Counted from the stretch's first letter, positions 1 to 37,986 are shown. The stretch is DNA of 64,000 bases from Rhodospirillales bacterium (GCA_965207535.1 CBDBMR010000011.1:78276-142275), one strand, 5' to 3'. A program made the numbers and translations. The notes: generated by a model from the sequence alone, not told the origin.

Positions 1-1672
1 CCAAGCCCAGCCGAGCGCAGCGGACGAGGAAGCTTTCCACCGCCTTGGCGGGCGACTTGATTTGCTCGGCGATGTCGTGGACCACCGGCGGCCTGGTATG
101 CCCGTCTTCGAGAATCGGCTTGATCCGCTTCCACAGCGCTTCGTCCTTGGACGACAGTTGGGGCTCGAAGCCCGGCAGGAAGTAGCTGGCGCCCCGGTTG
201 ACGATGGTTCCGTCGGCGACCAGGGTTTCGAGAATGGGCGTAAACCGTTTGGTCGGCATCCGGACACCGGTCTCGCGGCGGAGCCCGTCGGCACTGGGCC
301 CGGGCTTCTCGGGCGCGTTTTCGTGCCACGCCCGGAGCGCGGCCGTGATGCCGTCCCGGATTTCGGTCCAGTGGGCAGGCGCGTAGCCGGTCTCCAAATT
401 CTCACCGGCGCGGACGATCTCGACCGCCTCCCACAGGGCGGCTTGTTCGTCGCCGTTCAGGTTCCAGCCGACGATGAACGCCGGGAGATCGACGCCCAGC
501 GCCTGCCGGTCGAGAAGCTTGCGGAGCGCATCGGCGGCGGTGCGCTCCTCCATGGCGGCGATGGCGACGAGACGTTCCGGCCTGGCGCGGCCGCGGGCGG
601 GGCCGTGGGGGTCGAGCACCCGGCCGCCGGCGACGGTCCGGGTCGCCGACTGATCGCGAAGAATGAATCCGTCGCCGCAGAGCGCGCCGATCCGCCGGTC
701 GAGAACGATTTGCACCAACGCGCTCCCGCCGGGCGGGATGTTCTTGTCTTCGAGGACCGCCACGCGGCCCGGAATTTCGGCGGCGCCCAGGTGGACATGG
801 ACCGGCGTCCAGTGCTTGAGGGACTTGGCCTCGCCCGGCAGCACCCGGAGCCGGGCATCGAACCGGGGAACCGGATCGTGGATCGCATCGGCGACCAGCC
901 AGTCGCCCCGGTGCACGTCGTCCTTGGTGAGGTTTTGGCCGGTGATGTTGAGGGCGCAGCGCTGACCGGCCGCCCCCGCCTCCGCTTCCTCGTTCTGGGC
1001 GTGGATGCCGCGCACCCGGACGCGCTGGCCGCCAGGGGTAAGGGTCAGTTGATCGCCCACATTCACCGCGCCCGCGAACACCGAGCCGGTGACGATGAGG
1101 CCGGCGCCCTGAAGGGTGAATGCCCGGTCGATGGCGAGGCGGAAATTGCCATGAACCTCCCGGTCGCCGATCAACTCGGACGCGACGGCCAGATGCTCCT
1201 TGAGTTCACCGATCCCATCGCCGGTCACCGCGGACACCGGCAGGATTTCCGATCCCTCGAGGCCGGTCTCCATCAGGAGGAACTCGATCTGTTCGGTGAC
1301 GTCCCTGATCCTCGCCTCGTCGACCCGGTCGATCTTGGTCAGCGCGACCACCCCTTGATCGATTCCGAGGAGGTCGAGGATCGCCAGATGCTCCTCGGTC
1401 TGGGGCATGGGTCCGTCATCGGCGGCGATGACCAGCAGCGCGTAATCGATGCCGGAAACGCCGGCCAGCATGTTGCGAACGAAGCGCTCGTGACCCGGCA
1501 CATCGACAAATCCCATGACCTTGCCGCTGGCCATCGGCTTGTAGGCGAAGCCGAGATCGATGGACATGCCGCGTTTTTTCTCTTCCGGCAGCCGGTCGGT
1601 GTCGACCCCGGTCAATGCCTGCACCAGTAAGGTCTTGCCGTGGTCGATGTGGCCGGCGGTCGCGACGATCAC
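1..1672 (-). CDS. selB: Selenocysteine-specific translation elongation factor SelB (3' end runs off the left window edge)
   Basis: My own translation of the minus strand from the GTG at 1672 gives [44 protein letters not shown]...[10 protein letters not shown]...[10 protein letters not shown], the G1/G3/G4 motifs and the E. coli SelB N-terminal pattern. There is no stop before position 1, so the ORF track omits it. The start overlaps the selA stop as GTGA (1669-1672). Confidence 0.9.
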
Positions 1673-3114
1673 CTGGACGCGCCCCCCGGCGTCAACCGGT
1701 CGAGCTGGCCGACGAAGGCTTCCACGTCTTCGAGACAGCGGAGATCGAGAAGGAAGGCGCCTTCGTGGACCCGGCCGATGACCGGGATGGGGAGCGAGCG
1801 GAACGCCTTGGCGATTCGATTGAGCGCGGCGCCGCTGCCCCGCTTGCCGGTTGACGGGGTAATGCGGAGGGCGACGCTGTCCAGCCGCTCCACCGGCAGG
1901 GAGCCACTGCCGATCTGGCTCTGGCAGCCGGCCAGCTCGACGGCGGCGATCCCGTCAAGCGCCCGGGACACCGGATCGACGATCTGCTTGCCGGCCGCGG
2001 CAATTTCATCGGCCTGGCGCGCCAGCAGCCTGAGCGCCGGCATCCGCTCCACGAGGCGGTCGGGATCGAGATAGAGGCGGAGCACGGCGCTCAGCGCCGC
2101 CATGGTCACCTTGTCGATCCGCAAGGCCCGCTTCATCGGGTTCTTCTTTATTTTGTCGATGAGGTCCTTCTCGCCGACGATCATGCCGGCCTGCGGCCCG
2201 CCCAGCAGCTTGTCGCCGGAGAACGTCACCACGGACATGCCCTGGGCCAGGGCTTCCGCCGCCGTCGGTTCGTGGGGCAGGCCGAATTGGGCAAGGTCCA
2301 CCAATGTGCCGCTGCCGAGATCATCGACGCAGGGAATACCGTGTTTCCGTGCCAGTTGGGCGAGTTCGGAGTCGCTCACCTCCTTGGTGAAGCCCTGCAC
2401 CTCGTAGTTGGAGGTATGGACCTTCAGCAACAGCGCCGTCCTGCCGCTGATGGCTTCCTCGAAATCCTTCAGATGCGTCCGGTTGGTGGTCCCGACCTCA
2501 TGCATTTTGCAGCCGGCCCGGCGGATGATGTCGGGCATGCGGAACGAGCCGCCGATCTCCACCAGTTGGCCGCGGGAAACGGGAACCTCCTTGCCCTTGG
2601 CCAGCGTATTGAGGACCAGCAGGACCGCCGCCGCGTTGTTGTTCACCACCGTCGCCGCCTCGGCTCCGGTCAGCTCGGCCAACAGGTCATCCACGTGAAC
2701 GTCCCGGTCGCCCCGCCTGCCGCTCTCCAGATCGTATTCCAGGTTGGAGGCGCCGCCGGCAACGAGGGTCATGGCCTCGATCGCCTCCCGCGGCAGGGGC
2801 GCGCGGCCCAGGTTGGTGTGCAGGACCGTGCCCGTCAGGTTGAAGACTTTTTTGAGCGACGGCGCCGATTTCGCCGCCAGCAGATCCGCGACGGAAGCCA
2901 GCACGGCCTCTTCCGCGGTATCGGCATTCCCGCCGGCGCCGAGGACTCGCTGCCGCAACTCGCCGATGACGGCGCGGACGGCATCCGTGGTCGCCCGGCG
3001 GCCGTAGGCGTCGGCCAGCGCCCGGCCATCATCATGGCGCAGCAGCTTGTCTACCGACGGCAACACGGCCTGCAGCGGTTTGGAGGTCTCTGTCATGGTC
3101 GAACAGACGCCCAA
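1669..3114 (-). CDS. selA: L-seryl-tRNA(Sec) selenium transferase (selenocysteine synthase) SelA
   Basis: 481-aa ORF. The PLP-lysine region [17 protein letters not shown] and overall length are typical of SelA. It is translationally coupled to selB. The start could instead be the internal Met at 3096 (MTETSKPL). Confidence 0.9.
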
Positions 3115-3202
3115 TTTCCCTGAGTCCCCGGAGGCTATTTCGCCGCCTTGGGCCCGTCAAGGTTCCCAAATGGTGGCAAGCGCACCAAGGGGAGAGCGGG
3201 GT

Positions 3203-3231
3203 TTGACAGGGATTTTGAATTCCGATCTAGT
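3203..3231 (+). promoter_or_regulatory. Candidate sigma70-like promoter for the GrdB-like selenoprotein gene
   Basis: TTGACA at 3203-3208, a 17-nt spacer, then TCTAGT at 3226-3231, about 40 nt upstream of the ATG at 3272. It lies in the selA/grdB-like divergent intergenic region. Pattern match only. Confidence 0.25.
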
Positions 3232-3271
3232 CCCGGCAACGAATTCTCAAACTCATTGGATGGGGTGATAC

Positions 3272-4474
3272 ATGGTTAGGATGGACGCGCTGGCGCCCGC
3301 GATGGCGCAGCGGATGACAGACCTAGTGCTGCCGGAAGTCGAGAGCAGCGCCTGGAGCAAGGCGAAGCCGCTCAACGAAATGCGGGTGGCGATCGTCTCT
3401 TCCGCTGGACTTCATCTCAAAACCGACCGCCCGTTTTTCAGAGGCGACGTGGATTATCGGGTCATTCCCTCCGATACGGACGGCGCGGACCTGTTTATGA
3501 GTCACGTTTCGTCCAACTATGACCGGTCGGGATTTCAGGAAGACATCAACGTGTCCTTCCCCATCGATCGAATCAGGGAACTCGCCGAAGAAGGCTTCAT
3601 CGGCTCGATCGCGAAGAATCATATCTCATTCATGGGCGCGACCGACCCCACCGGCATGGAGCAGAAGGCCAAAGAGGCCGCGGCTATTCTCAAGGAGGAC
3701 AACGTCGACGCGGTCGCCCTGTCGGGCGTCTGACCCATGTGCACGCGCGCCGTGAGCGTGCTGGCCAACTACCTCGAGCGGGAAGGCTTCGTGACGGCGA
3801 TCATCAGCCTGATCAAGCTCCATACGGAGAAGATCGGCGTGCCGCGAGGTCTCGCCGTGCCGTTCGAGCTGGGCCGCCCTTATGGCGCGCCGACCGACGC
3901 CGAGTTCCAGAAACAGGTGCTGAAGCAGCAACTCAAACTCATGGAGAGCCCTTCGGGGCCCGTGCTGGCGGACTTCGATGACGACCCGCCGGACGGCAAG
4001 CCGTCCGACGGCTGGGACTGCGCCGTCGAGCTGCCGCCGGTATTCGAGGACACCGGTGATCTGGCCGGCCTCAGGGCCGCGGTGAACGCCGAGATCGACG
4101 CCCTCCGTCCGGCCTATGCGAAGGCCAGGGCACGCCGCGGAAGAACCACCGTCGGCGTCAGCGGAATGAATATCGAGATGGCGAGCGAGCTGCTCCTGGC
4201 CTTCGTCGAGGACGAGGGTATTCGCAGTCCCAATCCGGAATTCCCGCTGGCCATGGCGCTGAAGCTCGCCAGCGAAGACTTCAAGGCCTACTACTCCGAG
4301 GCCATGGCGGCCGAAGGCTGCATCGCGTCGAGCATGCAGATCGCCGATTGGTTCTGGAACGAAACCACCGGCGCCAAGGTGATGGCCGCGTTCAAGAAGG
4401 CCTGTGACGAGGCCTCGGACGAGAAAATCGTCGATATGGCTTGGGGCGTCGCGCCCGGCGGACGCCTGCCGTAG
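3272..4474 (+). CDS. GrdB/PrdB-family (glycine/sarcosine/betaine/D-proline reductase component B-like) selenoprotein with in-frame UGA (Sec) at 3731-3733
   Basis: Track ORFs 3272..3733 and 3737..4474 share one frame and are separated only by TGA plus one codon (CCC). The read-through sequence is ...NVDAVALSGV-U-PMCTRAVSVLANYLEREG..., which matches my recollection of the U-x-x-C-T-R context of GrdB-family selenoproteins. selA and selB are adjacent, and a hairpin follows the TGA. Confidence 0.8.
3741..3761 (+). promoter_or_regulatory. Candidate bacterial SECIS hairpin for the UGA at 3731
   Basis: GCACGC (3741-3746) and GCGTGC (3756-3761) form a perfect 6-bp GC-rich stem with the 9-nt loop GCGCCGUGA. 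The stem starts 8 nt after the UGA, and the loop contains GU. Confidence 0.45.
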
Positions 4475-4524: not shown

Positions 4525-4670
4525 CTGGGTGAGGGAGAATTCCATACCCCCCCACCCTCGACGCCCGGCTGATTGCCGGCCGTCTCGACCTCCCCCTCCA
4601 GGGGGGAGGTGATCCAGTCCGCCTCCACCTATTCCCTCCCCCCTTCGAGGGGGAGGGTCAGGGAGGGGGG
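4525..4670. repeat. G/C-rich hairpin repeat cluster (REP/MITE-like), locus A
   Basis: Contains GGGTGAGGG...CCCCCACCC, CCTCCCC-loop-GGGGAGG and CCCTCCCC-loop-GGGGAGGG hairpins. Positions 4544-4578 are nearly identical to 28744-28777. It lies between convergent genes. Confidence 0.75.
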
Positions 4671-4711: not shown

Positions 4712-5566
4712 TCAGCCGTCGATCACCGGGTTTTCAAGTACGCCGATCCCGGTGATCTCGACGGTGCAGACGTCGCCCGGTTTCATGTACCAGGGCGGGT
4801 TGCGGCGCGAACCGACCCCGCCCGGCGTTCCGGTGGCAATGACATCGCCCGGGTTCAGGGCAACGGCCGTCGACAGGTAGTTGATCAGCTTGTCGATCTT
4901 GTGATCCATCGCGGCGATGCCGGTGTGCTGAACCTGCTCGCCATTGATCCGGGTGGTCAGCTCATGAGCGTAAGGATCGCCAAACTCGTCGGGAGTCACC
5001 ATCCACGGACCAAACCCGCCCGTGTCCTGAAAATTCTTACCCGGTGCGAATTGGCTGGTGTGCCGCTGCCATTCGCGAATCGAGCCGTCGTTGTAGATGG
5101 AATAGCCGGCGATGTGATCAAACGCCTTTTCCTCGGGGATGGCGCGGCCCCGCTTACCGACAATGACCGCAAGCTCGCCTTCCCAGTCCAGCGTATCGGA
5201 GAAACTGGGGCGAACCATGGGGTCGCCGTGCGCGATCTGGGCCTCGGCGATGCGCAGGAAGATCATCGGCTCTTCCTGGGCGCCCCGCCCGGTCTCGTCC
5301 TGGTGGTCCTTGTAGTTGACCCCGACGCACCAGATGGCCTTGGGATTGGGCACCACGGGCAGCAGCTTCACGTCCGCAAGGCTCATCTCGGCGGGCTTTC
5401 CTTCGGCGGCGGCCTTCAAGGCGTCGATGGCGCCGTCCCGCTCCAGCAACCCCAGCATCGTGGCGGGCAAATCGGAGGCGACACTCGCGGCCGGCACGAA
5501 ACCGCTGTCGTCAACCATGACCCCGACGCCCTCGGCGCCGTTCAGTTCATAGGAAATGAGTCTCAT
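4712..5566 (-). CDS. Fumarylacetoacetate hydrolase (FAH) family protein
   Basis: 284-aa ORF with FAH-family features: ...WCVGVNYKDH..., WEGELAVIVGKRG, GDVIATGTPGGVG. Confidence 0.85.
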   Translation of the reverse strand: MRLISYELNGAEGVGVMVDDSGFVPAASVASDLPATMLGLLERDGAIDALKAAAEGKPAEMSLADVKLLPVVPNPKAIWCVGVNYKDHQDETGRGAQEEPMIFLRIAEAQIAHGDPMVRPSFSDTLDWEGELAVIVGKRGRAIPEEKAFDHIAGYSIYNDGSIREWQRHTSQFAPGKNFQDTGGFGPWMVTPDEFGDPYAHELTTRINGEQVQHTGIAAMDHKIDKLINYLSTAVALNPGDVIATGTPGGVGSRRNPPWYMKPGDVCTVEITGIGVLENPVIDG

Positions 5567-23974: not shown

Positions 23975-25039
23975 ATGGCACCGCCCGATACCGCAGACAC
24001 CACCTCGGAACGCCAAGCGTTCAACGAGGAAATCAAGAGCCTCGGCGCCGCGCCCTTGTGGGACCAATATCACGGCGTCCTGACTTCGGAGCCTCAGGTC
24101 CAGGGAGTTCCGCATATCTGGAAGTGGGACGGCATTCGCGACAAAATCCTTCGGGCCGGCGACCTGATTACCGCCAAGGAAGCCGAGCGCCGCGTGCTGA
24201 TGCTCGAAAATCCGGCCTACCCCGGCGAGGCCAAGGCGACGGAGACCTTGTTCTCGGGCATACAAATGATCCTCCCCGGCGAAGTGGCGCCTGCCCACCG
24301 GCATTCGCCCAATGCGCTCCGCCTGATTCTCGAAGGGTCCGGCGGCTACACGTCGGTCAACGGCGAGAAGACCTTCATGGAATTCGGGGACTACATCATC
24401 ACCCCGAACTGGTGCTGGCACGACCACGGCAATGAGGGCGATGAGCCGGTGATTTGGCAGGATATATTGGATTTGCCCCTGGTGCGCAGCATCGGCGCCA
24501 TCTTCCACAACCCCTATCCGGACGATCAGTTCCCGCCCGGCCCGCCGGAAGGAGACAGCCTCGTGCGGTACGGCTCCAACATGGTTCCGGCGGAGGGACT
24601 GGCGCCAGACCGGATGGCGTCGCCGATCTTTTCCTATCCCTACGCCCGGTCCCGGGAAACCATGGAGAAGCTCGCCGAGACCACCGATCTCGACCCCTAT
24701 CACGGGCTGAAGATGGAGTTCATCGATCCAACGACGGGCGGCGCCGCCATGTCGTCCATCTCGACCTTCCTCCAGCGCCTGCCCAAGGGCTTCAAGGGTG
24801 AGCGCTACCAGACCACCGAGGGCTGCATCTTCACCTGCCTCGAGGGCGGCGGCCGGGCCGTCATCGATACCGGTGGAACCGAAACCGCCATCGAGTTCCA
24901 ACCCAAGGACGTGTTCTGCGTGCCGTGCTGGTATCCCTTCCGGCTGGAAGCCGACGAGGACACGTACCTCTTCCAGGGCACCGACAAGGTGGTGCAGACC
25001 AAACTCGGCCTGTGGCGGGAGAAGCGCGGCAACGCGTAG
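23975..25039 (+). CDS. Gentisate 1,2-dioxygenase (bicupin)
   Basis: 354 aa with PLWD...MLENP...GEVAPAHRHSPNALRLILEG...WHDHGNEG, the characteristic cupin metal-binding motifs. Confidence 0.8.
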   Translation: MAPPDTADTTSERQAFNEEIKSLGAAPLWDQYHGVLTSEPQVQGVPHIWKWDGIRDKILRAGDLITAKEAERRVLMLENPAYPGEAKATETLFSGIQMILPGEVAPAHRHSPNALRLILEGSGGYTSVNGEKTFMEFGDYIITPNWCWHDHGNEGDEPVIWQDILDLPLVRSIGAIFHNPYPDDQFPPGPPEGDSLVRYGSNMVPAEGLAPDRMASPIFSYPYARSRETMEKLAETTDLDPYHGLKMEFIDPTTGGAAMSSISTFLQRLPKGFKGERYQTTEGCIFTCLEGGGRAVIDTGGTETAIEFQPKDVFCVPCWYPFRLEADEDTYLFQGTDKVVQTKLGLWREKRGNA

Positions 25040-25088
25040 CATGACGGCCGGTGCGAACCGGCGCGCCGGCGATCAGGGGGGATTGACG

Positions 25089-26342
25089 ATGACCGGCAGC
25101 TTGCCGCCATTTCATATTGACGTCTGCGATACCGCCCGGCGGGAGCCGGGCATGATGGTGTTCAACGTTCGGCCCGGCGGCCGGGCCGACAATACGGTCG
25201 GCAGCGGATGGCTGCTGGGCGTCGACCAGCGGGGCGACATCGCGCTCAATTACTCGGGCGGTGAGCCTGTACAGGACAATCGGCGCCTGCCGAACGGCAA
25301 TGTCCTCTTCTCCGAGACCGGCATCGGGCGAATTTACGAAATGACCCGGGGCGGCGAAATCGTCCGTCACTGGTACGTCACCGGAAAATGGCGGGACAAG
25401 GAGCCGCCGGTCGGCGGCATCCCCATCGATCTTTACCTCACCCATCACGCCATCAACATGCTGGGCAACGGCAACCTGCTTCTGATGTCCGCCGAGGTCC
25501 GAACTTTCGACGACTGGCCGGGCAGCGAAACGGATCCCGGCGCGCCGCCTGAGACCGCGAACGTGGTCGGCGACATAATTTGCGAGGTAACCCCCGACGG
25601 CGCCGTCATCAATCGATGGCGCATCCTGGATATGCTGGATCCCTACCGGATGTGCTACGGCTCCCGGTCGGGCTACTGGCGCAGCCGCGGCTTCGCCGAT
25701 TCCTTCGATTGGTGCCATGGCAACGCCACCGCCGAGGATCCCAAGGACGGCGGCATTCTCGTCTCCCTTCGGACCCAGGACTGCATCATCAAATTCGACC
25801 GGGCCTCGGGCGGCCTCATGTGGATTCTCGGCACCCACGACAATTGGCGGCCGCCGTGGTCCGAAAATCTGCTCAAGCCCGTCGGCGATGTGGGCTGGCA
25901 GTTCCATCAGCACGACTGCTCGGTGACGCCGTCGGGCACGGTCATGTGTTTCGACAACGGGAACTTCCGGGCAACGCCGTTCAATCCCGGTATCCCGGCG
26001 GAAGAAAATACCAGCCGCGTGGTCGAGTTTCGCATCGACGAAGACGCCATGACCATCGAACAGGTCTGGTCCTATGGCGATGCGCCCGGCGAGCGGCTTT
26101 ACGCCACCTACCAGTGCGGCGCCTGCCGGTTGCCCGAGACGGGCAACACGTTCATCACCTACGGCGGGATCGTCACCAAGGACGGCGTTCCCCATATGGA
26201 TGTCGAGGCCGGATTTTGCCGGGCCCGGCTGATCGAAGTCACGCCGGACAAGGAAATCGTCTTCGACATGTGGATCGAGGATACCGGATCCGACCCGATG
26301 CCGCTCTCGGCGTTTCGCGCCGAGCATTTCCCGGAGGCGTAG
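25089..26342 (+). CDS. Arylsulfotransferase (ASST)-like beta-propeller protein
   Basis: The start is set at the ATG at 25089 (MTGSLPPF), because the upstream part of the track ORF overlaps the dioxygenase. Repeated NGN(L/V) propeller-like motifs appear. The family call is moderate. Confidence 0.6.
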   Translation: MTGSLPPFHIDVCDTARREPGMMVFNVRPGGRADNTVGSGWLLGVDQRGDIALNYSGGEPVQDNRRLPNGNVLFSETGIGRIYEMTRGGEIVRHWYVTGKWRDKEPPVGGIPIDLYLTHHAINMLGNGNLLLMSAEVRTFDDWPGSETDPGAPPETANVVGDIICEVTPDGAVINRWRILDMLDPYRMCYGSRSGYWRSRGFADSFDWCHGNATAEDPKDGGILVSLRTQDCIIKFDRASGGLMWILGTHDNWRPPWSENLLKPVGDVGWQFHQHDCSVTPSGTVMCFDNGNFRATPFNPGIPAEENTSRVVEFRIDEDAMTIEQVWSYGDAPGERLYATYQCGACRLPETGNTFITYGGIVTKDGVPHMDVEAGFCRARLIEVTPDKEIVFDMWIEDTGSDPMPLSAFRAEHFPEA

Positions 26343-27097: not shown

Positions 27098-28081
27098 TCA
27101 GGTCCGTCCCTGCATCCGCGCCAACTGCGCCGCGCCGCTGCGCCGCGCCAGCAACCGCTCGCCGTAGCGGTTCACCATCGCGGTGGACTTCCACCGCCCG
27201 GCATGGAGGATCGCCGGCAGCTCAATGCCGGCGGCGACCATGTCCTGGGCCGCGCCGACGCGCGCCGAGTGCCCAGACAGGCCCCCCGCCACTGTGTCCG
27301 GCAATCCGGCGTCCCGCGCCATCGCCTTGAAGATGCGCGGCACCTGGCTCGGGTCGAGCCCCTCGCCGATCCGCCCGCCCTTGCCGACCGAACGAAACAG
27401 CCGCCCGTCCTCGATCCCGCCCCGGTCGAGCCACAGGCGAACCAGCCGGACCGTGTCCGGGCCGACCCAAACGATCTCGCCCGCACCCTCGCCGTCGGTC
27501 TTGGAGCGGCGCACTAGAAGGCTGCCGTCGCCCGGCAATTCTTCAAGCAGATCAATGACTTGCAGTGATATCAGTTCAGTCCGCCGAAGCATCGCGTCGT
27601 AGGCGACGGCAAGCAGCGCCCGGTTACGGTCGTCGATCAGCCTGTCGCCCGCGGCCTCCAGCAAGCGCCGGCGCAGCGGCCAGGTCAGTCCCGCCGCCTG
27701 GTCCTGGCGGCGGCCCTTCCTGCGGTGCATGCGCTTGAGCGCAAGCTGCACCGGTGGACTTCCGAGGGGCTTCTCCAGCCCGAGGGCCCGCTGGGCGATG
27801 TCGATGCTGGTCACGTAACGGCGCACCGTGGCCGGCGCCCTGACCTCCGCCTTGGCGTCGACGAAGGCGGCAACGGTCTCGGGGCTGGCCGGCAGCGCCC
27901 TTTCCCCGCGCTCGGCGCACCACTTGGCGTAGATGGCGAGATCGGACTTGAGCGCCCGTTCGGTGTTGCTCGAGAATGCGCCGCTCGCTGCTTGCACGAA
28001 CTGTTGGAGCCGCTTCGCGAGCGCCGGTGCGCGTTCCGCTCCCGGCTCCCCACGGGGGTCGAACGGGGGTTCGAGATACAT
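27098..28081 (-). CDS. Cre-like tyrosine site-specific recombinase
   Basis: SGHSARVGAAQDMVAAGIELPAILHAGRWKSTAMVNRYGE resembles Cre SGHSARVGAARDMARAGVSIPEIMQAGGWTNVNIVMNYIR. DDRNRALLAVAYDAMLRRTELISLQVIDL resembles Cre DIRNLAFLGIAYNTLLRIAEIARIRVKDI. The start is set at MYLEPPF (28081). Confidence 0.85.
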   Translation of the reverse strand: MYLEPPFDPRGEPGAERAPALAKRLQQFVQAASGAFSSNTERALKSDLAIYAKWCAERGERALPASPETVAAFVDAKAEVRAPATVRRYVTSIDIAQRALGLEKPLGSPPVQLALKRMHRRKGRRQDQAAGLTWPLRRRLLEAAGDRLIDDRNRALLAVAYDAMLRRTELISLQVIDLLEELPGDGSLLVRRSKTDGEGAGEIVWVGPDTVRLVRLWLDRGGIEDGRLFRSVGKGGRIGEGLDPSQVPRIFKAMARDAGLPDTVAGGLSGHSARVGAAQDMVAAGIELPAILHAGRWKSTAMVNRYGERLLARRSGAAQLARMQGRT

Positions 28082-28118
28082 GTGCGCGCCTCCGGTTCGT
28101 CCAATCGCGAGCCCGCAG

Positions 28119-28152
28119 ATTACGCGCGATAGCAACAGTTATCGCGCGCAAT
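28119..28152. other. lox-like 34-bp recombination site, right copy (inverted relative to the left copy)
   Basis: ATTACGCGCGATA-GCAACAGT-TATCGCGCGCAAT. The arms match each other's reverse complement at 12 of 13 positions. The site lies 38 nt upstream of the recombinase start codon. Confidence 0.6.
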
Positions 28153-29421: not shown

Positions 29422-29740
29422 GGAGGGGGAGCTATGCATTTTTGTACGAACTGTTTGGGGGGCACCTCCCAAACGGAGGCCAATAAATGTCCATGAATGC
29501 CTATAAATGCCTATACCGGCGAAAATAGCCAACTTGGAAAATATTTATAAATTATGGCATTTCAACATCTTACCGATATGCGCCCAGTGCATGGCTCGCG
29601 CCCTCCCACGCCCCTGGGATTGCGGCCGCGGAGGACAGGCGAATTTCGCCCAATATCAGCGATAGCAAATGGGCATATATGAGCCGCCCGCCGGGCGCGC
29701 TACATGTCGGCAAATCATGACCCCTGGAGGCCCCCCGCTC

Positions 29741-31330
29741 ATGGGCAAGACCAAGAACATTCTGTTCATCATGTGCGACCAGCTTCGCTGGGACTATCTG
29801 TCCTGCGCCGGTCATCCGCGGCTCGAAACGCCCAACATCGATGCCCTGGCGGCGAAGGGCGTGCGGTTCACCCATGCCTATTGCCAGGCCCCGGTCTGCG
29901 GCGGGTCGCGCATGTCGTTCTACACCGGGCGCTACGCCTTCACCCATGGCGCAGTGTGGAACGGCGTCCCCCTGTCGGTCGACGAATTGACCATTGGCGA
30001 CTACCTGCGCCCGCTGGGCCACCGGGTGGCGCTGGTCGGCAAGACCCATATGGTCGCCGACCGAGGCGGGATGGAGCGCCTCAAGATCGACCGCAATTCC
30101 ATCGAGGGCGTGCTGGTCGCCGAATGCGGCTTCGAGCCCTACGAGCGGGACGACGGCCTGTGGGGCACCGCCGAGACGGCGCCGGAAAACCTCGCCTACA
30201 ACAATTGGATGCGGGAACAGGGCTACGACGGCCCGAATCCATGGCACGACTTCGCCAACTCGGCCGAGGGGCCCAACGGCGAGATCCTCTCAGGCTGGTA
30301 TCTGCGCAACAGCAAGTATCCGGCCAGGGTGAAGGAAGAGCATTCCGAGACCGCCTATATGACCGGCCGCGCCATGCAGTTCATCGAAGAAAGCGGCCAC
30401 GAACCGTGGACCATGCATCTCAGCTATATCAAGCCCCACTGGCCGTATATCGCGCCGGCACCCTACCACGACATGTTCGGCGGCAACGACATACTGCCCG
30501 CCAACCGTCACCCGAAGGAACTGGAGACCGACCACCCGATCTACCGGACCTATCACCGGCGCGAGGACTGCCAGGCCTTTTCCCGGGATGAAGTGCGGGA
30601 AACGGTCATCCCCGCCTATATGGGACTAATCAAGCAGATCGACGATCACCTGGGCCGGCTGTTCGCCTTCATGGAAGAGAAGGGCCGGATGGACGACACC
30701 ATGATCGTTTTCACGTCGGACCACGGCGATTACCTGGGCGACCACTGGCTCGGCGAGAAGGAACTGTTTCACGAAGAGAGTATCCGGCTGCCGTTCATCG
30801 TCTACGATCCGGATCCGGCATCGGACGCAACCCGCGGCACCGTCGACGACAGGTTCATCGAAAGCATCGACCTCGTCCCCACCTTCATCGAGGTGGCGGG
30901 GGGCACGGTTCCCGAACACGTGGTGGAGGGCAAATCGTTGCTGCCCCTTCTGCATGGGGAGCAGCCCGGCGATTGGCGGGACTATGTCATCTGCGAATCG
31001 GAATTCGCACCGCGGATAGACCTGGACGCCCTCGGCATCGCCGCCCGCGAAGCACGCGCCATCATGATCCGGACGGCCAAGTGGAAGTACATCCACCACC
31101 TGAAGTTCCGCCCGGAACTTTACGACCTCGAGGACGATCCCAACGAGTTCACCGACCTCGGCGCCGACCCCGCTTATGAGGAAATCCGGAGCCGGATGCG
31201 GGAGATGCTGACGGAGAACTTCCTCGCCCGGAATTTCCGCACCACCGTCGGCGAGGAACCGCTCGCCCGGCGCGGTCACGCGGTCTACCACCCGCCGGAA
31301 CAGCGGCGCGTCTACATCGGGGTCTGGTAG
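29741..31330 (+). CDS. Sulfatase / alkaline-phosphatase-superfamily hydrolase
   Basis: ILFIMCDQLRWD...APVCGGSRMSFYTGRY, and later TSDHGD, are sulfatase-family metal and nucleophile motifs. The nucleophile motif is C-G-G-S-R rather than C-x-P-x-R. Confidence 0.85.
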   Translation: MGKTKNILFIMCDQLRWDYLSCAGHPRLETPNIDALAAKGVRFTHAYCQAPVCGGSRMSFYTGRYAFTHGAVWNGVPLSVDELTIGDYLRPLGHRVALVGKTHMVADRGGMERLKIDRNSIEGVLVAECGFEPYERDDGLWGTAETAPENLAYNNWMREQGYDGPNPWHDFANSAEGPNGEILSGWYLRNSKYPARVKEEHSETAYMTGRAMQFIEESGHEPWTMHLSYIKPHWPYIAPAPYHDMFGGNDILPANRHPKELETDHPIYRTYHRREDCQAFSRDEVRETVIPAYMGLIKQIDDHLGRLFAFMEEKGRMDDTMIVFTSDHGDYLGDHWLGEKELFHEESIRLPFIVYDPDPASDATRGTVDDRFIESIDLVPTFIEVAGGTVPEHVVEGKSLLPLLHGEQPGDWRDYVICESEFAPRIDLDALGIAAREARAIMIRTAKWKYIHHLKFRPELYDLEDDPNEFTDLGADPAYEEIRSRMREMLTENFLARNFRTTVGEEPLARRGHAVYHPPEQRRVYIGVW

Positions 31331-35869: not shown

Positions 35870-36922
35870 ATGGGCATAATCGCGCCAAACGAAGAATCTA
35901 CCTATCGCAGGATGCACGAGGTCTTGAAGAACCTCATCCCGGATTTTGAAATCCAGGAGAAGGCGAAACTCGCCTACAGAATCAACCGTCTCAAAAAAGA
36001 GAAAAACGCGGTCATTCTGGGCCACAACTACATGGAAGCGGCGCTCTATCACTCGGTCCCGGATTTTACCGGCGACTCGCTTGCGCTTTGCCAACAGGCC
36101 GCCACGACCGACGCCGACATCATCGTATTTTGCGGCGTCCGCTTCATGGCCGAATCCGCGAAAATCCTGAATCCGGCGAAAACGGTCCTGCTGCCGGCGG
36201 TGAAGGCCGGATGCTCCCTGGCCGCGGCCATTACGGCGGACGATGTCCGTGCGCTGAAAAAGCGCTTTCCCGGCGTACCGGTGGTGACCTACATCAACTC
36301 CTACGCCGACGTGAAGGCGGAGACCGATGTCTGCTGTACATCCGCAAACGCCGTCAAGGTCATTGAATCCCTCGAAACCGACACCGTCATCTTTCTTCCC
36401 GACGAGTTCATGGCCGGCAACATTGCCGCCGAACTCGGCTGGTCGACCTACTTTCCTCAAGATGATCCGGAGAGGACCAGGCCGCCGGCGAACCTCGAGA
36501 ACACCATCATCTCCTGGCATGGCTCGTGCGAGGTCCACGAACTTTTCACACCGGAGGACGTCACCTCGGTCCGCAAGCAGTTTCCGAATGTCGCCGTCCT
36601 CGCTCACCCGGAGTGCAAACCGGAGGTGGTCCGGGAATCCGATTTCGTCGGCTCCACAAAGGGCATCATCGACTACGTGGGCGCCAACGATGCGCCGGAA
36701 TTCCTGCTGCTGACCGAATGCGCCATGGGCGACAACATCATCGCCGGTCACCCGGACAAGAATATTCTGCGCCTGTGCAGCCATCGATGCCCGCACATGG
36801 CCGAGATTACGCTCGAGGATACGCTCGATGCGCTCGAGAACACGCGCTACGAGATCACGGTGCCCGAAGACATCAGGCTCCGCGCGTTGGGCTCGATCGA
36901 ACGAATGCTGGAGATCGTCTAG
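35870..36922 (+). CDS. nadA: Quinolinate synthase NadA
   Basis: 350 aa with ILGHNYM, FCGVRFMAESAKIL, CSLA, YINS and ECAMG motifs characteristic of NadA. Confidence 0.9.
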   Translation: MGIIAPNEESTYRRMHEVLKNLIPDFEIQEKAKLAYRINRLKKEKNAVILGHNYMEAALYHSVPDFTGDSLALCQQAATTDADIIVFCGVRFMAESAKILNPAKTVLLPAVKAGCSLAAAITADDVRALKKRFPGVPVVTYINSYADVKAETDVCCTSANAVKVIESLETDTVIFLPDEFMAGNIAAELGWSTYFPQDDPERTRPPANLENTIISWHGSCEVHELFTPEDVTSVRKQFPNVAVLAHPECKPEVVRESDFVGSTKGIIDYVGANDAPEFLLLTECAMGDNIIAGHPDKNILRLCSHRCPHMAEITLEDTLDALENTRYEITVPEDIRLRALGSIERMLEIV

Positions 36923-37986
36923 AGCTTCACCCGCCCGGCGATTTCCGGCGAATCTTCCGCGTATCGGAACGCCCTGAACACCCAGTTAACGATGTCGTCA
37001 TCTATCCCGGGGCCCCGGTGCGGGTTGATGAACTCCCACACCAGTTCACCGTCGGGCGTGACCTCGAACAGCCGGCCATTCAGCCCTTCGCAGATCAGCG
37101 TATTGCCGGTCCACAACCGTTCCTGGCCGCTGATGTGGTGGGAATAGAAATGGGTCCGCGGCTGGGCACGGTACTGCCAGACGATTTCGTTGGTCTTGGG
37201 ATCGATCTCGAGAATCAGTGAGTGGGGATGCGCCTCGTAACTGTTCATGCCGTTGGCGAAGACGATGACGTTCCCGTTCGGCAGCAACTGAGGGTCGTGC
37301 TGGCCGCCCAAAATCATGTCGGTGAATTCCCAGCGGAACTTTTTCGTCTGCCGGTCGATAATCGCGATGGTGTTGATCTGCCGCAGACTGATCAGCACAT
37401 CGCCGTTCTCCAGCGGGAACGTCGTATTGCACCACGCGAATACGCGCCGCGGCGCCAAGGGATGAATGGGATATTTTTCGATGTCCATTTCGTAGGTATG
37501 CCACTCCCAGACGGTGTTGCCGTCGGGGTCCACTTCACGCACATAGTCGCCGAAAATTCCGCCCGGGGGCTCCGTGCCCGGACGCCCGCCCTGAACCCGC
37601 TTCTGTGCGTCTTCGGGCATCACGTCCCAGCCGGCATAGACAATATTGCCGTTGGCCAGTTTTCGCGCGTCATGGTGCTGCCAGCCATCGATGAATTCCG
37701 TCAGGACGTTTCCGTCCCAATCCACCTCCCGCAGGATTCCGCCTTGGGCGCCGCCCTTGAACGGCGGCACATCGTCGCCGTCCCACTGGGCGGCGTAGAA
37801 AAGATTGCCGTTGGGCAGCAGCCGCGAGTATCCGCCCGGCGTGCCCGGTAGATCCCACTCGTGAACCGGCTCGCCGTCCATGTTCAACAGATAGGTCTTT
37901 TGCGTCCAAAGCGGCGAATAGAGGGTGAAGCCAGGCGTCGCCTTGCCGTCATCCTTGTAGGTCAGGCCGGTTTGCAGAATTCTCAT
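36919..37986 (-). CDS. Arylsulfotransferase-like beta-propeller protein
   Basis: Repeated (L)PNGN(L/I/V) motifs and ...VWE(W/F)... blades. This is the second ASST-like gene in the window. Confidence 0.6.
   Translation of the reverse strand: MRILQTGLTYKDDGKATPGFTLYSPLWTQKTYLLNMDGEPVHEWDLPGTPGGYSRLLPNGNLFYAAQWDGDDVPPFKGGAQGGILREVDWDGNVLTEFIDGWQHHDARKLANGNIVYAGWDVMPEDAQKRVQGGRPGTEPPGGIFGDYVREVDPDGNTVWEWHTYEMDIEKYPIHPLAPRRVFAWCNTTFPLENGDVLISLRQINTIAIIDRQTKKFRWEFTDMILGGQHDPQLLPNGNVIVFANGMNSYEAHPHSLILEIDPKTNEIVWQYRAQPRTHFYSHHISGQERLWTGNTLICEGLNGRLFEVTPDGELVWEFINPHRGPGIDDDIVNWVFRAFRYAEDSPEIAGRVKL

Follow-up and report, generated by a model that had tools for sequence, protein, structure and literature searches.

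A predicted PrdB-like selenoprotein of the GRDB superfamily encoded across an in-frame UGA beside selA and selB in a Rhodospirillales bacterium

Positions 3272 to 4474 of the 64,000-nucleotide stretch of DNA analyzed here (the window) raise a two-part question: do they hold two short genes, as gene callers report, or one selenoprotein gene read through a UGA codon, and in the latter case what kind of protein is made? Frame translation agreed with the sequence-only reading that the ORFs 3272..3733 and 3737..4474 share one frame and are parted by a TGA and a single CCC codon, the order being ATG (3272), 153 codons, TGA (3731-3733), CCC (3734-3736), ATG (3737) and, at the end, TAG (4472-4474). 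The read-through product is 400 aa long (...DAVALSGV-U154-P-M-C157-T-R-A-V-S-V...), and its complete orthologues (n=80) mostly measure 400-412 aa. The host had been taken for an alphaproteobacterium, and the genome that the window matches best is indeed that of a Rhodospirillales MAG (99%). The features of the gene and of the region upstream are as follows.

3272..4474, plus strand: complete selenoprotein gene of 400 codons plus stop, codon 154 being UGA (frame, colinear Cys homologues, 80 orthologues)
3731..3733, plus strand: in-frame UGA, read as Sec (U154) (TGA at 83 of 83 sites, Cys column, independent assemblies)
3740..3742, plus strand: codon of Cys157, the partner within the U-x-x-C redox motif (at least 98% of 80 orthologues)
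3115..3271, no strand: divergent intergenic region common to selA and the PrdB-like gene (presumed promoters)

In the window the PrdB-like gene is monocistronic and divergent from selA, with a convergent FAA-hydrolase gene (4712..5566) downstream. No match to the sigma-70 consensus was found in 3115..3271, and the promoter positions are putative. Weak evidence for transcription of the gene comes from a sponge metatranscriptome, one 189-nt contig of which aligns to 3503-3691 with two mismatches and stops short of the UGA. The intergenic region downstream of the gene (4528-4660) holds G/C-rich palindromic repeats, cctccccctccaggggggagg at 4590-4610 and ccctccccccttcgagggggaggg at 4634-4657; in contigs of the same metagenomes the depth over these repeats reaches ~560 versus 2-7 for the PrdB-like gene, so that they look like a multi-copy REP-like element. 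A similar G/C palindromic element is present at 3034-3163 of L001, a locus from a close relative.

The expectation that standard callers would split the gene proved right: two ORFs are called, and the databases hold hundreds of fragments of 153 aa and about 245 aa from the PrdB-like family, the former annotated as 'PrdB' or 'GrdB family protein' and the latter as 'hypothetical protein'. The TGA itself was reproduced by contigs assembled independently from other sequencing runs, and a related strain keeps it while showing a synonymous difference at 3730. TGA is an ordinary stop in 12 of the 32 other genes of the window, which rules out a genome-wide recoding of this codon.

When the fused sequence was used as a protein query, 13 homologues proved to be full-length (369-470 aa; P0002 and P0004-P0015); they are colinear over the junction and carry Cys exactly at the UGA column, within the motif PVC-PN-C-[TS]-R. 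The other matches include many fragments of ~245 aa which start directly after the UGA site. The N-terminal half searched by itself gave more than 1100 clusters, and among the 120 listed nearly all are ~153 aa long and end at that same site. Moreover, orthologues were sought in one genome per GTDB species, giving at least 557 relatives from which the best 80 loci were taken. Among these best 80 loci, three of them with tandem paralogues, codon 154 is TGA at 83 of 83 orthologous sites, a pattern far beyond chance; the loci span Alpha-, Beta- and Gammaproteobacteria, Desulfobacterota, Chloroflexota, Gemmatimonadota and others, and the motif around the site reads [PG]-[VI]-U-P-x-C-T-x-A-V. Met occupies the second position after U in the window and close relatives alone; most orthologues have N, L, F, Q or A instead, so that a separate start codon for the downstream half is missing there. 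The proposal of a single read-through protein of the GrdB/PrdB family with a U-x-x-C motif is therefore upheld both by the Cys aligned with U and by the conserved position of the TGA.

Two further observations concern the active-site codon. L007 (4959, 6192), L046 (6583, 7860) and L072 (8460, 9702) contain tandem paralogue pairs in which each copy has its own TGA and SECIS. The metagenome contigs L087 (3001-4110) and L089 (2620-3729) share an orthologue that is 99.8% identical between them, and the 2 positions that differ among its 1110 nt fall in the active site, which reads TGC CTC in the former (Cys-Leu, P0002) and TGA CCC in the latter (Sec-Pro, at least 24 contigs), the SECIS being identical in the two. 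This pair is either a very recent, population-level switch from Sec to Cys or an artefact of assembly or polishing.

Directly downstream of the UGA lies a conserved, structured SECIS element.

3745..3761, plus strand: SECIS hairpin, stem 3745-3750/3756-3761, apical loop 3751-3755 (CGUGA), 11-nt spacer after the UGA

Its stem has five G-C/C-G pairs and one G-U pair, corresponding to nt 15-20/26-31 when numbered from the UGA, and may be extended by an optional lower stem in which 3741-3742 pairs with 3764-3765. When 83 distinct sequences are aligned without gaps, 91% of the cells of this stem are paired, with compensatory double changes at three of the six pairs (10 cells): pair 16:30 changes from C-G to U-A, A-U or G-C and pair 17:29 from G-C to U-G or C-G. 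The observed covariation was reached by none of 500 shuffles, and all slid registers collapse. The coupling extends over separate codons, a change of Arg159 from CGC to UGC going with a partner codon that ends in A (GCA three times, GGA once) and a change from CGC to GUC or ACC being accompanied by the partner codon GGC or GGU. The loop G-U, encoded by A160-V161, is invariant in the Sec forms and varies in the Cys forms (GA, AT, TV, AS); the stem is broken in two Cys-form genes, L083 and L086.

The 6-bp hairpin originally pointed out, GCACGC (3741-3746) paired with GCGUGC (3756-3761) around a 9-nt loop, does exist, and the two stems are of similar stability (-9.4 kcal/mol versus -8.7 kcal/mol for 3745-3750/3756-3761). 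However, that register shows no covariation, its score being equalled or exceeded by 346 of 500 shuffles, and was rejected as the SECIS; the supported stem shares its 3' arm and starts 4 nt later. Folding of 3725-3790, suggested as a check, gave nothing exceptional, the segment being no stabler than its shuffles (z=+1.9) in a context of 63% G+C, which makes folding energy alone uninformative here. The Rfam search of the whole window at the gathering threshold reported only a tRNA-Lys, and neither a SECIS family nor a tRNA-Sec.

The genes for selenocysteine synthesis and insertion are next door. That selA and selB lie directly upstream in divergent orientation was confirmed with Pfam.

1669..3114, minus strand: selA, selenocysteine synthase (Pfam SelA E=2.5e-160)
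1..1672, minus strand, running off the window edge: selB, Sec-specific elongation factor (Pfam GTP_EFTU, Beta-barrel_SelB and SelB winged-helix domains)

The GTG start of selB (1672) overlaps the TGA stop of selA as GTGA (1669-1672), suggesting translational coupling of the two genes. Sec-machinery genes (selA, selB, selC/tRNA-Sec, selD fusion) were found within 8 kb in 15 of the 79 other loci, tRNA-Sec in 11 of them; as a rough guide, if a genome of a few Mb has four genes of this kind, they can be expected this close to a given gene only ~2% of the time. The 64-kb window and L001 yielded neither tRNA-Sec (selC) nor selD, and the Rfam E-value scan of L001 gave only a spurious miRNA match on a G/C palindrome; both selC and selD stand beside orthologues in other genomes. 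A gene of ~730 aa adjoins the orthologue in L024, L028, L031, L034, L055, L057, L058, L061, L064, L068, L069 and L072; a reading of its sequence and AIRS-domain matches suggest a product in which a pyridine-nucleotide-disulfide oxidoreductase is fused to SelD, and tRNA-Sec is often next to this putative SelD-fusion gene.

As for the family of the protein, its assignment to GrdB/PrdB held in part: Pfam GRDB matches above its cutoff, but the protein is PrdB-like rather than GrdB-like, lacks the N-terminal half of GrdB and carries an additional C-terminal domain.

3332..3946, plus strand: PrdB-homologous catalytic domain, aa 21-225 (TIGR04483 E=1.2e-42; Pfam GRDB PF07355 36.6 bits)
3998..4471, plus strand: family-specific alpha-helical C-terminal domain, aa 243-400 (not in PrdB/GrdB; no Pfam match; AlphaFold2)

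The NCBIfam PrdB model TIGR04483 aligns in one stretch over the Sec site (profile positions 13-219 of 238) with 145.9 bits, under its equivalog cutoff of 300. Pfam GRDB (PF07355) scores 36.6 bits against a gathering cutoff of 22, aligning aa 16-151 to profile positions 204-345 of 347. The GrdF, GrdH and GrdB models are weaker, with 46-61 bits against cutoffs of 602-800, and their match is limited to profile positions from ~203-224 to 401-424 of 431-435.

The C-terminal domain gave no Pfam match even at E<=10. An exhaustive HMMER search of 1.84 billion representatives found it in 433 representative clusters, always after the PrdB-like part and in no other architecture. An AlphaFold2 model built on the Cys homologue P0004 (pLDDT 90.4, pTM 0.90) shows an alpha/beta N-terminal domain followed by a bundle of six helices, with the C-x-x-C at a strand-to-helix junction, at the N-terminus of helix 158-173. 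Sequence searches of the PDB with the single protein and with a profile gave nothing meaningful, and Foldseek found no match of the P0004 model to the PDB at E<0.01. An alignment of 20 sequences shows no variation at Cys250, which lies in the linker ahead of the helical domain.

The gene had been described as standing alone, with no grdA, grdC, grdD, grdE or prdA nearby, and a survey of the window and of 80 loci supports this description. None of these five genes is present in the 64-kb window; no prdA, prdH, prdC or grd gene was found in the window or in the flanks (up to 8 kb per side) of the 80 loci, nor any prdA/Gly_reductase-type gene among the 140 adjacent neighbours at those loci. A conserved operon partner was likewise not found, by neighbourhood clustering of the 80 loci or by Pfam on 90 adjacent same-strand neighbours, where the commonest family is GST (4 of 90). 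Outside the Sec machinery, the largest neighbour clusters consist of a CoxL-like molybdenum hydroxylase, seen at 11 loci, and of GST, seen at 6.

The other genes of the window are ordinary metabolic ones, encoding a sulfatase, arylsulfotransferases, luciferase-like monooxygenases and gyrA among them, and its sequence recurs in sponge metagenomes. Two arylsulfotransferase genes (24798-26342 and 29669-31330), a sulfatase gene (36919-37986) and a phage-type integrase gene (27098-28135) form a set that fits the lifestyle of a sponge symbiont.

We propose that 3272..4474 is very probably one gene for a 400-aa cytoplasmic PrdB-like selenoprotein of the GRDB superfamily, decoded through its SECIS, using U154 and C157 for catalysis and working by itself as a reductase, its substrate being something other than D-proline bound to PrdA. 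SelB carrying Sec-tRNA(Sec) would recognize the hairpin at 3745-3761, 11 nt past the UGA at 3731, and selenocysteine would be inserted as residue 154 in place of termination. At the N-terminus of its helix, the U154/C157 pair would serve as the catalytic selenol and thiol: by analogy with PrdB, the selenolate may attack an electrophilic centre of the substrate, C157 would resolve the Se adduct to a selenenyl-sulfide, and a thiol or an NAD(P)H-linked reductant would presumably re-reduce it. Since there is no PrdA gene nearby and the protein has its own helical C-terminal domain of ~160 aa, a self-contained reductase whose substrate is not PrdA-bound D-proline seems most likely, a PrdA-free way of working that is suggested by comparison with the clostridial enzyme. 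More tentatively, the helical domain may take the place of a partner of the PrdA/GrdE type, which would make the family one of single-polypeptide, PrdA-independent Sec reductases with another substrate, possibly a marine or host-derived small molecule.

Among the alternatives, the one that survives best, although we regard it as rather unlikely, is that the U-x-x-C belongs to a general thiol/selenol oxidoreductase (acting on disulfides, peroxides or similar) and does not carry out C-N or C-X cleavage of the Prd/Grd type. The position of the motif at a helix N-terminus in the P0004 model would suit such an enzyme, as would the occasional GST neighbour (4-6 loci) and the fact that no substrate-activating partner was found in the neighbourhoods; the family is moreover classed among thiol-dependent redox proteins in PMC1088965. 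However, the conservation goes further than this. In the N-terminal domain of the 80 complete orthologues R63, H78, S80, D84-R85, D91, N93, U154, P155 and T158 are invariant, as is the motif F198-x-L-G-R-P-x-G205, with C157 kept in at least 98%; the positions from R63 to N93 in this list and the FxLGRPxG motif are common to the Prd/Grd B proteins, as judged from the profile match. Conservation beyond the redox motif suggests a defined small-molecule site.

It is much less probable that the protein is a genuine D-proline reductase PrdB subunit, with the pyruvoyl subunit PrdA (plus PrdH/PrdC) encoded elsewhere in the genome. Such an identity is implied by the JGI annotation 'D-proline reductase (dithiol) PrdB', TIGR04483 is the best family match, the UxxC agrees and the Sec position is close to that of C. 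difficile (154 versus 151). Against it stand a score of 145.9 bits that is far under the equivalog cutoff, a length of 400 aa including an extra domain versus 25.7 kDa for PrdB and a 238-position profile, and the absence of a PrdA/Gly_reductase-type gene from the window and from the neighbours at the 80 loci, whereas prdA and prdB belong to one cluster in Clostridia (PMC11229817); furthermore, the hosts of the orthologues include surface-ocean, sponge-symbiont and other non-fermenting lineages. A score under the cutoff, an additional domain and the lack of a prd cluster together make a genuine PrdB with a distant PrdA unlikely.

Finally, we regard termination at the TGA (two polypeptides of 153 and 245 aa), a pseudogene or an assembly error as all but excluded, for although callers give two ORFs and an ATG happens to stand two codons after the TGA in the window, that ATG is missing from most orthologues, the Cys-containing homologues are single chains, the TGA is kept across phyla and in independent assemblies, the SECIS covaries and the gene is linked to Sec machinery.

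Taking 3272..4474 as a single selenoprotein gene, joining the two fragments at UGA=Sec yields the correct product for the window gene and for hundreds of public orthologues. The analysis documents that the family differs from bona fide PrdB, that its SECIS has a defined register and that gene callers split it systematically. The Stickland-fermentation function that the name carries is unsupported, because the score is sub-equivalog, an extra domain is present and PrdA was not found. The family is among the most frequent selenoproteins of marine metagenomes and often adjoins the Sec machinery, and this frequent placement may mean that it is a main reason why these aerobic or symbiotic hosts keep selenocysteine decoding. 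Should the single-polypeptide, PrdA-independent reading be true, one of the most abundant selenoproteins of bacteria from the ocean and of sponge symbionts would have been misnamed 'D-proline reductase' for twenty years.

With regard to known systems, the recoding signal can be compared with the SECIS of the E. coli fdhF type. In E. coli, the SECIS is spaced 11 nt from the UGA and its loop G-U is required. The PrdB-like element resembles it in being a short G+C-rich hairpin that begins 11 nt past the UGA and in conserving the apical-loop G-U, and the setting is similar as well, a SelB with winged-helix domains being encoded adjacent to the gene. Unlike the fdhF type, the stem is only 6-7 bp long and gives no Rfam SECIS match, and many members show a G-G mismatch at pair 17:29 in contrast to the bulged U of the fdhF-type element.

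The protein is related to GrdB, GrdF and GrdH (PF07355, TIGR01917/01918) through its Pfam GRDB match over the gathering score. This match ends two residues before the UGA, which is where it should end in case the Pfam model itself runs only as far as the Sec of GrdB. The differences are that only GRDB positions 204-345 are covered, the N-terminal ~200 residues of GrdB being missing, that grdA, grdC, grdD and grdE were not found nearby, and that the motif is UxxC versus the UxxCxxC of GrdB; a review's motif table gives UxxC for PrdB and UxxCxxC for GrdB.

Closer is the PrdB selenoprotein subunit of clostridial D-proline reductase, which was reportedly described by Kabisch et al. 1999. PrdB measures 25.7 kDa, the Sec of the C. 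difficile protein is residue 151, and the published mechanism has the selenol of PrdB attacking D-proline at its alpha-carbon while this substrate is bound to the pyruvoyl group of PrdA (PMC11229817). The likeness covers the homologous aa 21-225 (E=1e-42), the UxxC motif and the nearly equal Sec position, and the chemistry of a selenol nucleophile with a resolving Cys is presumably the same. On the other hand, the window protein differs in its sub-equivalog score, in its ~160 extra C-terminal residues, in having no prdA, prdH, prdC or prdR nearby and in belonging to host taxa and habitats that are not those of Stickland fermenters. No functional characterization of a PrdA-less PrdB-like protein was found in the literature.

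The closest counterpart is the 'PrdB' of metagenomic selenoproteomes. 'Proline reductase PrdB' (pfam07355, UxxC) ranked third in abundance among the selenoprotein families of the Sargasso Sea, with 42 Sec and 1 Cys forms (Zhang, Fomenko & Gladyshev 2005, PMC1088965), and 'PrdB' was again among the top families of the GOS data, with 235 Sec and 110 Cys forms (Zhang & Gladyshev 2008, PMC2398784). Other lists of selenoproteins name a 'PrdB' in Anaeromyxobacter, in Geobacter uraniireducens and in the Olavius delta-1 symbiont (PMC1794560, PMC1976440), the last being the source of our locus L020. The text available from the metagenomic papers makes no mention of an extra C-terminal domain or of the absence of PrdA. 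The family is thus no new one, 'PrdB' having figured in metagenomic selenoproteomes since 2005 (PMC1088965 and PMC2398784); the selenoprotein status of the family is already established, and the window gene adds one more member. From name, motif, Pfam family, habitat and taxa we infer that the PrdB-like family described here and the metagenomic 'PrdB' are the same: both are pfam07355-related UxxC proteins, found mostly in the Sec over the Cys form and abundant in marine bacteria.
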